Positions 42,975 through 44,807 of a stretch of DNA of 64,000 bases are shown here, piece by piece. Under the pieces are notes generated by a model, which worked only from the letters and a program-made list of their open reading frames with translations, did no database searches and was not told the DNA's origin. Both the position numbers and the translations under genes were made by a program. This stretch comes from Bdellovibrio sp. (GTDB taxonomy: Bacteria; Bdellovibrionota; Bdellovibrionia; Bdellovibrionales; Bdellovibrionaceae), in the NCBI RefSeq assembly GCF_036384735.1, contig NZ_DASVLT010000038.1, positions 148 to 64,147 of the forward strand. Reading direction: 5' to 3'. Numbering within the stretch: position 1 is the stretch's first letter; each line of letters starts with the position of its first letter.

Positions 42975-43764
42975 TATGAAAGTGAAAGAGCTTTTCGCTA
43001 TTCCTAAATTTAATGATGGTGCCCTGAAGGTTTGGCAGCGCAACTTCTTGTATTTCAAAAAGACATGGCTTGTATCTTTGTTCTGGATCGTCCTTGAGCC
43101 GGTTATTTACCTGGGCGCGATCGGTTTCGGTCTTGGTGCCTTCGTTAATAACATGGGCGGAATGTCTTATATTGAATTTTTCTTCCCAGCGCTTTTGTGT
43201 ACGACAGCGATGTTGGTAGCCTTCTTTGAAGGAACCTACGGGAACTACACAAAGCTGACCCATCAAAGAACTTACGCGACAATCATGCTGACACGTGTAG
43301 GACCAGAAGAAATCGTAGCCGGTGAATTATTGTGGGCTGCCTCCAAAGGATTCTTTGGAGTTCTTGGAGTGACAGTTGTCGCGATCTTCTTTGGTTTGAT
43401 CGACACTCCTAAAATTCTTTTGGCTTTGCCGGTGCTGTTCTTATTGTCATGCTTATTTTCTTGCATCGGCATGATCTTCACTTCGATTGCTAGGAACTAT
43501 GATTCGTTCATCTATTCAACTTCGGGATTGATTGTGCCAATGAGTTTACTCAGCGGAACTTATTTTCCGTTAGAGCAGTTGCCGACAACTCTTCGTTATG
43601 TGGCTTATTTATTTCCGCTGACTCATGCAGTGGGGGCTGTACGTGGAATTTTGCATGACGGAAATCCTCTATGGATTTCCGTACATATTTTGGTTCTTTT
43701 GCTGGCTACCTGGATTTGTATGAACATTTCATTCGTGCGCATTCGCCATAAACTTCTAAAATAA
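42967..43764 (+). CDS. ABC-2 type permease (NodJ-like)
   Basis: Six TM helices; SGTYFPLEQLP; FPLTHAV. Confidence 0.92.
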   Translation: MNSMKVKELFAIPKFNDGALKVWQRNFLYFKKTWLVSLFWIVLEPVIYLGAIGFGLGAFVNNMGGMSYIEFFFPALLCTTAMLVAFFEGTYGNYTKLTHQRTYATIMLTRVGPEEIVAGELLWAASKGFFGVLGVTVVAIFFGLIDTPKILLALPVLFLLSCLFSCIGMIFTSIARNYDSFIYSTSGLIVPMSLLSGTYFPLEQLPTTLRYVAYLFPLTHAVGAVRGILHDGNPLWISVHILVLLLATWICMNISFVRIRHKLLK

Positions 43765-43765
43765 T

Positions 43766-44089
43766 CTATAGAATTTCGATGCTGATCACTTCAAGAGTGG
43801 CGGCATCGAAAGTAAACTTCAAAGACTTCTTAGTCTTTCTGCTATTATCAAGAAGAGCCTTTAATTCCGCCGCATTTTGATCTTTTGGGAAGGTATAGAA
43901 AGCAGCATGTTTGCCTATCATGATTTTGAAAGCATGTTCCGTTTCAACATAACGAGTAACGGGACCAGACTCTGTACTTACAACAGATGCTGGTTTTCTT
44001 TTAAAGCCATTGAATATTTTTGCGTTCGCAGTCATGACGAAAGCCTGCACTCCCATGATAACAAGTAGAGTAGAGATCAGTTTTTTCAT
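43766..44089 (-). CDS. secreted 107-aa protein resembling a free-standing protein-glutaminase pro-domain
   Basis: Signal peptide (ANA|K); KIMIGKHAAFYTF...LLDNSRKTKKSLKFTF...EVISIE; TAATG coupling to the upstream enzyme. Confidence 0.7.
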   Translation of the reverse strand: MKKLISTLLVIMGVQAFVMTANAKIFNGFKRKPASVVSTESGPVTRYVETEHAFKIMIGKHAAFYTFPKDQNAAELKALLDNSRKTKKSLKFTFDAATLEVISIEIL

Positions 44090-44772
44090 TAGCGAACCCC
44101 TTGTCCTGTTTGGCCCGAACTAGAACCCGATGAGCCAGATCCAAAGAAAGATCCGCCACCGTTAAAGCCTTCGCCTAGAGCTTCAAGTTTCTTTTCTGTT
44201 TCAGTGTATTCTTCCATGACTTCTTTTGAAGTTTCAATATCCTCTTTATTCCAAGAGTACTTTTTCGGTTCTGTATCGAGAGGACCAAATTGATAACGAG
44301 CTCCGTAATATATCTTGTCGAGATGAGGTTTTGGATTGCCATCTACGTTCATTTTCGCGGTCCACTCATCCACTGTGACTGGCTTATCAAATAGTGATGG
44401 ATCGAAGACCATTAACTTTGGTTTACCGCCATCGCTAACATAAACAACCGGGGCGACATGATATCCCCATTCGATGGTGGGCGTATATTTGCTTTTTGTT
44501 TTTACACGAAGATATCCGGTGGCCCAAACTTTGCCCATTTCGATCTTTTCTTCTTCAGCAATTTTAGACATCGCAGTCGCGCGAGCATAGCAACCGTCCG
44601 GAGGATAATTAAAAGGAATTTCGGTATGAGATTTAAATTCAGTGAATAAGCGATCTGCCTGTGCCGTACTCAAAACCGATACATCTACATCCTTGCCGGG
44701 AGCAAAAGCGTCGGGAATGGTCATCGTTGCAGCGAGTGCGAACAACGCTAAAAATAAAATTCTCGTGATCAT
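44089..44772 (-). CDS. secreted protein-glutamine glutaminase-like enzyme (papain-like Cys-His-Asp)
   Basis: FNYPPDGCYARA, WGYHVAP, FDPSLF; signal peptide; start is either 44772 or 44784. Confidence 0.88.
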   Translation of the reverse strand: MITRILFLALFALAATMTIPDAFAPGKDVDVSVLSTAQADRLFTEFKSHTEIPFNYPPDGCYARATAMSKIAEEEKIEMGKVWATGYLRVKTKSKYTPTIEWGYHVAPVVYVSDGGKPKLMVFDPSLFDKPVTVDEWTAKMNVDGNPKPHLDKIYYGARYQFGPLDTEPKKYSWNKEDIETSKEVMEEYTETEKKLEALGEGFNGGGSFFGSGSSGSSSGQTGQGVR

Positions 44773-44780
44773 ATAAGAAT

Positions 44781-44807
44781 TCATCGGTGTCTCAGGAATA
44801 GACTGAA
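44781..44807 (-). promoter_or_regulatory. degenerate sigma28-like promoter
   Basis: TTCA-N15-ACCGATGA immediately above ATG 44772. Confidence 0.35.

Follow-up and report, generated by a model that had tools for sequence, protein, structure and literature searches.

The closest described relatives of the locus reported here are the secreted protein-glutaminases (PGs), represented by the pre-pro-PG of Chryseobacterium proteolyticum (EC 3.5.1.44; PDB entries 3a56 for the pro-form, 3a54 for the A47Q mutant and 2zk9/2ksv for the mature enzyme) and by the Flavobacterium and Bacteroides PGs (8z3i and PGB). The locus lies within a 64,000-nucleotide stretch of Bdellovibrio sp. DNA (contig NZ_DASVLT010000038.1, positions 148 to 64,147; the whole stretch is referred to as the window) and comprises a gene for an exported PG-family enzyme followed by an overlapping gene for a 107-residue protein, the partner, which resembles the PG pro-domain. 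The window enzyme shares the PF18626 domain, the catalytic triad and secretion with the described PGs and, as in pre-pro-PG, goes together with a module of pro-domain type that has a conserved small-residue/aromatic loop. However, it has no cis pro-region, falls below the NCBIfam equivalog cut-off, and has a Gly/Ser-rich tail in place of the Cys-rich C-terminal part of PG. The module, which is ~15% identical to the pro-region, is here separate, separately exported and encoded downstream, rather than attached N-terminally to the enzyme for removal by proteolysis. It is moderately probable that the two genes form a coupled operon for an exported, pro-less PG-family enzyme and a pro-domain-like partner that holds it latent in trans.

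Pro-PG is inactive, or ~17-fold less active in the case of the Bacteroides enzyme, until peptidases remove the propeptide (PMC13139226, PMC13763027). The cleaved propeptide stays bound to mature PG, with 4 M urea needed for its removal in one case (PMC13139226), so that covalent attachment is not needed for a pro-domain-like protein to hold the enzyme. Among peptidases, free-standing propeptide-like inhibitors are an established principle; the literature searches recovered nothing comparable for protein-glutamine deamidases. The peptidase examples include the MEROPS I9/I29-type inhibitors, such as the yeast proteinase B inhibitor and the CTLA-2/cathepsin propeptide-like inhibitors. A further case is the propeptide-like protein of Plasmodium SUB1 (PMC6993865). 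The analogy to the window pair would lie in a pro-domain homologue made as a separate polypeptide and in trans control of a mature enzyme, although the folds and enzyme classes are unrelated (peptidases, not a deamidase) and the peptidase inhibitors are usually not co-transcribed or co-exported with a pro-less enzyme, whereas the window genes are paired. Within Bdellovibrio, a self-protection pair consisting of Bd3459 (a DD-endopeptidase) and Bd3460 (an ankyrin-repeat protein) was reportedly described, with experimental support, by Lambert et al. in 2015; a potentially self-harming envelope enzyme encoded beside a small exported neutraliser would be common to both cases, although the proteins are unrelated. 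In the literature searched, no paper connects a free-standing pro-domain-like partner with enzymes of the PG family, PG enzymes of Bdellovibrio are not treated in any, and the sole paper found that mentions PF18626 lists the family in a survey of papain-like folds.

The enzyme and partner genes

The features of the locus, all on the minus strand, are as follows.

44089..44784, minus strand: enzyme coding sequence, a 231-residue secreted pro-less PF18626 Cys-His-Asp enzyme with a Gly/Ser-rich tail (...GQTGQGVR), from the open reading frame (ORF) list and the PF18626 match
44725..44784, minus strand: predicted Sec signal peptide of the enzyme, about residues 1–20 (MNSYMITRILFLALFALAAT), cleavage site uncertain, from sequence reading and homologues
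44590..44592, minus strand: codon of catalytic Cys65 (DGCYARA), aligned with Cys42 of mature PG 2zk9
44458..44460, minus strand: codon of catalytic His109 (WGYHVAP), aligned with His83 of mature PG
44401..44403, minus strand: codon of catalytic Asp128 (VFDPSLF), aligned with Asp103 of mature PG
44087..44103, minus strand: translational-coupling junction with a Shine-Dalgarno-like AAGGGG and TAATG (sequence ...caaggggttcgcTAATGaaa)
43766..44089, minus strand: partner coding sequence, 107 residues (about 84 in the mature form), secreted, from the ORF list
44021..44089, minus strand: predicted Sec signal peptide of the partner, residues 1–23, cleavage after ANA, from sequence reading and low model confidence for residues 1–20
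43883..43912, minus strand: partner hairpin loop and strand K60-H-A-A-F-Y-T-F-P-K69, from family column counts, alignments and the AlphaFold2 (AF2) model

The enzyme matches PF18626 (Gln_deamidase_2) over residues 44–145 with 113.3 bits (cut-off 25; E 7.6e-33), and its significant matches in the PDB are solely to protein-glutaminases (8z3i, 2zk9/2ksv and 3a54/3a56), in each case to the mature domain only. The triad named in the original prediction, Cys65, His109 and Asp128, aligns with Cys42, His83 and Asp103 of mature PG (phmmer, 2zk9/2ksv), and the AF2 model of a homologue 37–40% identical to the enzyme returns PG structures in Foldseek (E 5e-10). The NCBIfam equivalog NF040782 (EC 3.5.1.44) is not reached (64.5 bits against a cut-off of 250), the enzyme matching only positions 141–256 of the 321 in the profile. 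The approximately 50 homologues recovered (146–322 residues) are nearly all unnamed or labelled 'protein-glutamine glutaminase family protein' and come from Bdellovibrio or Bdellovibrionales.

The N-terminus of the enzyme (M..RILFLALFALAAT) reads as a Sec signal peptide, and short hydrophobic N-termini are also present in the homologues P0005, P0008, P0009 and P0010. The alignment to mature PG begins at approximately enzyme residue 48 (mature residue 25), and the gap between signal peptide and catalytic domain is about 20–27 residues, such that a 114-residue pro-region cannot fit; an exported enzyme without a pro-region had been predicted, and the alignments agree, placing the catalytic domain ~25 residues past the signal peptide. 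None of 51 enzyme homologues has a pro-PG-like N-terminus. The 322-residue Bacteroidota protein P0053 was considered as a pro-PG and rejected, as it consists of an N-terminal enzyme domain and a C-terminal extension. The enzyme is a PG-family Cys-His-Asp protein, predicted to be exported by Sec and most likely a protein-glutamine deamidase.

The partner gene overlaps that of the enzyme, with one base common to the enzyme TAA stop and the partner ATG (cgcTAATGaaa), and the AAGGGG run lies within the last codons of the enzyme, 8–13 nt 5′ of the partner start. Because of this run and the TAATG overlap the two genes look translationally coupled, and 1-nt or 4-nt stop/start overlaps of enzyme and partner also occur at three other loci (L001, L003 and L004). 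The partner N-terminus (MKKLISTLLVIMGVQAFVMTANA, with predicted cleavage before K) reads as a Sec signal peptide of its own; both the overlap and this signal peptide, the latter by sequence reading, agree with the original prediction.

Resemblance of the partner to the PG pro-domain

The partner belongs to a family that is recognizable only with sensitive searches. The single sequence gives no match beyond noise in Pfam, NCBIfam or the PDB (phmmer), and a word-index homologue search finds two close relatives only. A six-sequence partner profile finds nothing in the PDB, and a locus search with the six-sequence alignment returns only two loci, both already known. An exhaustive comparison of the six-sequence profile with 1.84 billion cluster representatives recovers 107 relatives, 64 of them at E<=1e-10; all are free-standing proteins of 52–123 residues, and none is fused. 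A Pfam scan of 103 family members reveals no covering family, and sub-threshold matches to PepSY (one), Staphopain_pro (one) and YcxB (three) are treated as chance.

In the AF2 model the partner folds into six beta strands and a single helix, with a predicted local distance difference test score (pLDDT) of 82 overall, above 90 in the core and low for residues 1–20. Residues 59–63 are unpaired between strands 53–58 and 64–68, forming the tip of a hairpin. The segment K60–K69, which contains most of this tip, is the best-conserved part of the family (column counts among 103 members: H61 60, A63 81, Y65 94, F67 78, P68 89 and K69 86).

Similarity to the PG pro-domain was assessed with 3a56_A as the pro-PG reference, from which 3a54 differs by A47Q. 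In a Foldseek search of 350,542 PDB chains with the partner model, 3a56_A is the top match (E 5e-3, probability 1.00; TMq 0.54, rmsd 4.3 over 85 columns, given without alignment coordinates), with OB-fold proteins close behind. A hidden Markov model (HMM) of 103 partner sequences compared with 177,635 PDB sequences also places 3a56_A first, over residues 32–91, which lie inside the pro-region (E 0.034). In hhalign (local mode), the partner family aligns with a 21-sequence alignment of Chryseobacterium pro-regions with a score of 32.0 (probability 82%, P 1e-5), ~9 standard deviations (sd) above the mean of 200 column shuffles (mean 11.1, sd 2.2, maximum 20.7), and the reversed alignment scores 10.5. 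This alignment pairs partner residues 45–106 with pro-region residues 30–91 over 62 columns without gaps and with 9 identities, and places partner A62-A63-F64-Y65 on A47-Q48-F49-Y50. The pro-PG segment used in the original prediction agrees with 3a56_A, and the gapless alignment proposed there has the same register, with the Ala/Phe-Tyr positions of the partner on those of the pro-region.

In the alignments, K60–K69 falls on the Ala47 loop of the pro-region (L-T-A-Q-F-Y-E-I-K). This loop presumably lies over the PG active site, as PDB entry titles (A47Q mutant, 'enzyme-substrate complex') suggest. As three independent approaches (Foldseek, the HMM against the PDB, and hhalign) converge, we conclude from profiles and a predicted fold that the partner is distantly homologous to the PG pro-domain and probably resembles it in structure, although each single statistic is modest; the likeness suggested is one of remote homology, not of family-level similarity.

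When enzyme and partner were aligned together, MAFFT persistently placed the partner on the enzyme N-terminus. The two proteins have short motifs in common: (I/P)-x-N/D-G/A-F close to the N-terminus, and also F-x-(F/Y)-P-x-D, located before the catalytic Cys of the enzyme and after the loop Tyr of the partner; this sharing is probably chance.

Linkage across genomes and the Chryseobacterium counterpart

Enzyme and partner genes are linked well beyond the window. Among 401 evenly sampled Bdellovibrionota genomes, the partner profile (census at E<=1e-3) matches 58 (25 of 203 genera), whereas PF18626 matches 227. The DNA around all 69 partner matches outside the source genome was scanned with the partner and enzyme HMMs, and a same-strand PG-family gene lies no more than 400 nt from 38 of 72 partner genes, the two copies of the source genome counted; chance adjacency is estimated at ~1 in several thousand, taking about one PG gene in each 3.5 Mb genome. 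With two exceptions, the enzyme gene precedes the partner gene at these 38. The pair and its synteny are shared by Bdellovibrio svalbardensis and Bdellovibrio sp. HCB274, while the pairs at L004 and L005 are in non-syntenic contexts. A Bdellovibrionales metagenome-assembled genome (MAG) has an uncalled 113-residue partner homologue that overlaps the enzyme stop in an unrelated gene context, and in another MAG the partner is upstream of the enzyme. Linkage in other genomes, on which the proposal of a functional pair depended, is thus present in non-syntenic contexts and in both gene orders, and is accompanied by two in-frame fusions.

L014 (G196:C1), 1850–2791: in-frame enzyme-partner ORF, 313 residues from the first Met
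L070 (G298:C1), 1706–2725: in-frame enzyme-partner ORF, 339 residues from the first Met

In these two genomes enzyme and partner share one open frame (322 residues in L014 and 357 in L070) with a hydrophobic signal-peptide-like remnant between the domains, and the ORFs could be true fusions or give two products via an internal start. Both domains fold in the AF2 model of the L014 natural fusion (pLDDT 74.7, predicted template modelling score 0.59), of which Foldseek aligns the enzyme domain only (PG fold, E 5e-10).

Presence of a partner varies with the type of enzyme. Among enzymes scoring at least 100 bits against the window-type HMM, 41 have a partner, 11 do not and one is cut by a contig end, while of the lower-scoring PG paralogues two have a partner and 24 do not; these counts come from biased sampling, the loci having been picked by partner matches or their absence. 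In a maximum-likelihood tree the window enzyme is within a supported clade of seven sequences (97/96), all with a partner.

Other arrangements were also observed. L020 (G022:C36) has two tandem PG genes and then one partner, L018 (G381:C3) has the order partner-enzyme-partner, and some genomes of family f20 have 6–11 PF18626 copies. Several multidomain PG proteins of 550–680 residues have weak partner-like ORFs that overlap their ends. At L085, L086, L091, L095 and L099 (proteins of 570–680 residues, families f20 and f23) these ORFs are ~90–105 residues long and match the partner HMM at E 2e-5 to 4e-3, and the partner family is therefore probably larger than the E<=1e-3 census.

A partner-family gene also accompanies the PG gene in two Chryseobacterium genomes (Bacteroidota). 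In Chryseobacterium daecheongense and Chryseobacterium sp. H1D6B an unannotated gene for a 102-residue lipoprotein is located 66–75 nt downstream of pre-pro-PG.

L081, 4032–4340, same strand as the PG gene: 102-residue partner-family lipoprotein gene
L122, 2532–2840, same strand as the PG gene: 102-residue partner-family lipoprotein gene

Both lipoproteins match the Bdellovibrio partner HMM at 23–30 bits, and the pair matches the partner family in hhalign (probability 95%, P 5.6e-8). The window partner agrees with them in family, in export and in its same-strand position 3′ of a PG gene. The lipoproteins have a lipoprotein signal (Cys), whereas the window partner has a signal peptidase I site; their enzyme keeps its cis pro-domain, whereas the window enzyme has none; and their loop is Q-Q-V-F-Y or P-Q-V-F-Y, in place of A-A-F-Y.

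Judged by these profile matches, the free-standing partner family is common to Bacteroidota and Bdellovibrionota, and because it coexists with the cis pro-domain in Chryseobacterium it is older than the window locus. The original prediction held that the pro-domain had become a trans-acting partner of the enzyme; remote homology to the pro-domain stands, but the split that this implies needs revising, since the free-standing family and the cis pro-domain occur side by side. The window pair is better seen as a PG enzyme that lacks a cis pro-domain and retains the trans partner alone; a recent split describes it less well.

The Chryseobacterium loops, I-N-Q-Q-V-F-Y or I-S-P-Q-V-F-Y in full, have a Gln that falls on the column of Ala47 or beside it. 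The A47Q mutant (PDB entry 3a54) is described as an enzyme-substrate complex, and by analogy the lipoprotein might present a substrate-like Gln to PG.

Possible roles of the partner and the setting of the locus

In the reading in which the partner keeps the enzyme latent, the two proteins would be synthesised ~1:1 and both exported through Sec, and they would associate in the periplasm as a non-covalent 1:1 complex. The conserved hairpin loop of the partner (H61-A-A-F-Y65) would lie over the Cys65 cleft in the manner of the Ala47 loop of the pro-domain. The enzyme would stay latent in this complex, with the partner possibly also assisting its folding, and would become active once the partner is released or degraded outside the cell. 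The enzyme family and triad, the missing cis pro-domain, the likeness of the partner to the pro-domain in profile and predicted fold, and the conserved linkage are all consistent with such an arrangement.

Several observations weigh against this reading. Each measure of similarity between partner and pro-domain is marginal alone: BLASTP of the partner against the 114-residue pro-region gives no alignment, phmmer and the six-sequence profile missed the pro-region, and generic OB-fold proteins score similarly after 3a56 in Foldseek. There is no PG gene within about 2.5 kb of 34 of the 72 partner genes, among them a conserved orphan subfamily with a copy in the source genome itself (contig C49). 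Conversely, no partner is detectable for the majority of PG-family genes in the phylum (227 against 58 of 401 genomes), including a paralogue in the same genome (contig C35) that has neither partner nor pro-domain, and a cap is therefore not generally required by the PG fold. In one sampled genome there are two PG genes and a single, orphan partner-like gene, without an adjacent pair. Finally, the Chryseobacterium partner is encoded beside a cis pro-domain, and its role may differ from simple zymogen capping.

Some of these points bear equally on what else the partner could be. That it chiefly assists folding or export, as a chaperone acting in trans that is needed once and not as a lasting inhibitor, is unlikely; protease pro-peptides supplied separately can act in this way. 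It is homologous to a pro-domain, pro-domains of secreted hydrolases are often foldases (PMC10580911), tight translational coupling would yield ~1:1 synthesis, and in-frame enzyme-partner fusions exist, but the many PG paralogues (C35 included) without pro-domain or partner indicate that the fold needs no general helper. Moreover, the best-conserved partner segment is the one aligned with the active-site-covering loop, which suits blocking over folding, and the Chryseobacterium partner is a lipoprotein beside an enzyme that already has a cis pro-domain. A similarly low probability is given to a non-inhibitory OB-like accessory (a substrate-recruiting subunit, an anchor or a substrate of the enzyme) whose likeness to the pro-domain is at the level of the fold or too old to inform function. 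In its favour are a Foldseek E of only 5e-3 with many OB-fold matches close behind, an HMM E of 0.034, the half of the partner family that is unlinked to PG genes, and the cis pro-domain in Chryseobacterium, beside which a second cap seems redundant. However, three independent methods choose the same pro-region in the same register from the whole PDB, the conserved partner loop coincides with the Ala47 loop, and the shuffle controls rule out an effect of composition.

A classical interbacterial toxin-immunity pair, with the deamidase delivered by a dedicated secretion system and the partner conferring immunity against sister cells, is very unlikely. The small gene directly downstream, overlapping the enzyme gene on the same strand, the export of both products to the same compartment and orphan partner copies elsewhere in the genome, which resemble orphan immunity genes, all recall such systems. 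Yet the enzyme has just a signal peptide and a catalytic domain, without a delivery domain (PAAR, Rhs, WXG etc.), both proteins have ordinary Sec signals, and the locus, which has no secretion-system genes nearby, is not polymorphic like toxin cassettes, with bipA/typA, the ABC-2 transporter, mtgA, the epimerase and PAP2 syntenic within the genus. Least credible of all is a chance ORF or unrelated small gene whose resemblance to the pro-domain is coincidental. Identity to the pro-region is only 9 of 62 and BLASTP is empty, but the 107 representatives among 1.84 billion proteins (64 at E<=1e-10) refute it as far as the data go, as do the confident fold, the conserved adjacency and the shuffle control.

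If the partner is a trans-acting cap, its family would constitute a new group of inhibitors, directed at an enzyme in commercial food use, and the unannotated member beside a PG gene in at least two Chryseobacterium genomes would bear on yield and activation of recombinant PG. The industrial enzyme comes from Chryseobacterium, and having a family member beside the PG gene in two of its species is what lends the finding practical relevance. A cap would also provide a handle on the roles of the many PG-like enzymes in predatory Bdellovibrionota (227 of 401 genomes, often in several copies), and a natural within-family comparison of pro-domain control in cis, in trans, by both and by neither. A broader proposal is that the enzyme serves predation, being exported in a latent 1:1 complex that shields the predator periplasm and freed in prey to deamidate glutamines of the prey envelope or cytoplasm, and that PG and partner are a widespread enzyme/inhibitor system in which the Chryseobacterium lipoprotein is a cell-surface self-protection factor; taken as a whole this is possible, although doubtful.

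The source genome has one further member of each family. The C35 paralogue (contig C35:139188–139517, minus strand; L007 1288–2088) is a PG-family protein of 266 residues whose N-terminal part has, besides the signal peptide, an acidic stretch of low complexity. Its subfamily has a conserved C-terminal motif (R-D/N-P-x-x-E-L-G-x-x-P-P-W-L), and none of the sampled members has a partner gene. The orphan partner-family gene (contig C49:130302–130604, plus strand; L009 4303–4608) encodes a 101-residue protein with a signal peptide and the loop NAGSYYLRRD; it is situated between ung and genes for a coiled-coil secreted protein, aroB and aroA, with no PG gene nearby. The orphan subfamily (VKKIREDDEG..LF.K..GSYYLRRD...QLNILEV) is well conserved and occurs in many genomes of the genus.

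The genes flanking the window pair are housekeeping genes. bipA/typA and ABC-2 transporter genes on the plus strand converge on the pair, and the minus-strand genes upstream of it encode a monofunctional transglycosylase (mtgA), an NAD-dependent epimerase and a PAP2 phosphatase. A weak sigma28-like promoter had been proposed, but the closest match to TAAA-N14-16-GCCGATAA differs at 4 of 12 positions, a fit that 847 of 2000 shuffles equal, which is chance level, and scans of the locus for sigma70 promoters and terminators are at background. The stops of the ABC-2 permease (43764, plus strand) and the partner (43766, minus strand) are one base apart (window 43762–43768), leaving no room for a terminator between the two transcription units. 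A conserved G-V-[RKQ] motif at the enzyme C-terminus was considered as a sorting signal and rejected, being confined to the nearest relatives; its conservation probably reflects the partner-gene Shine-Dalgarno sequence in those codons.

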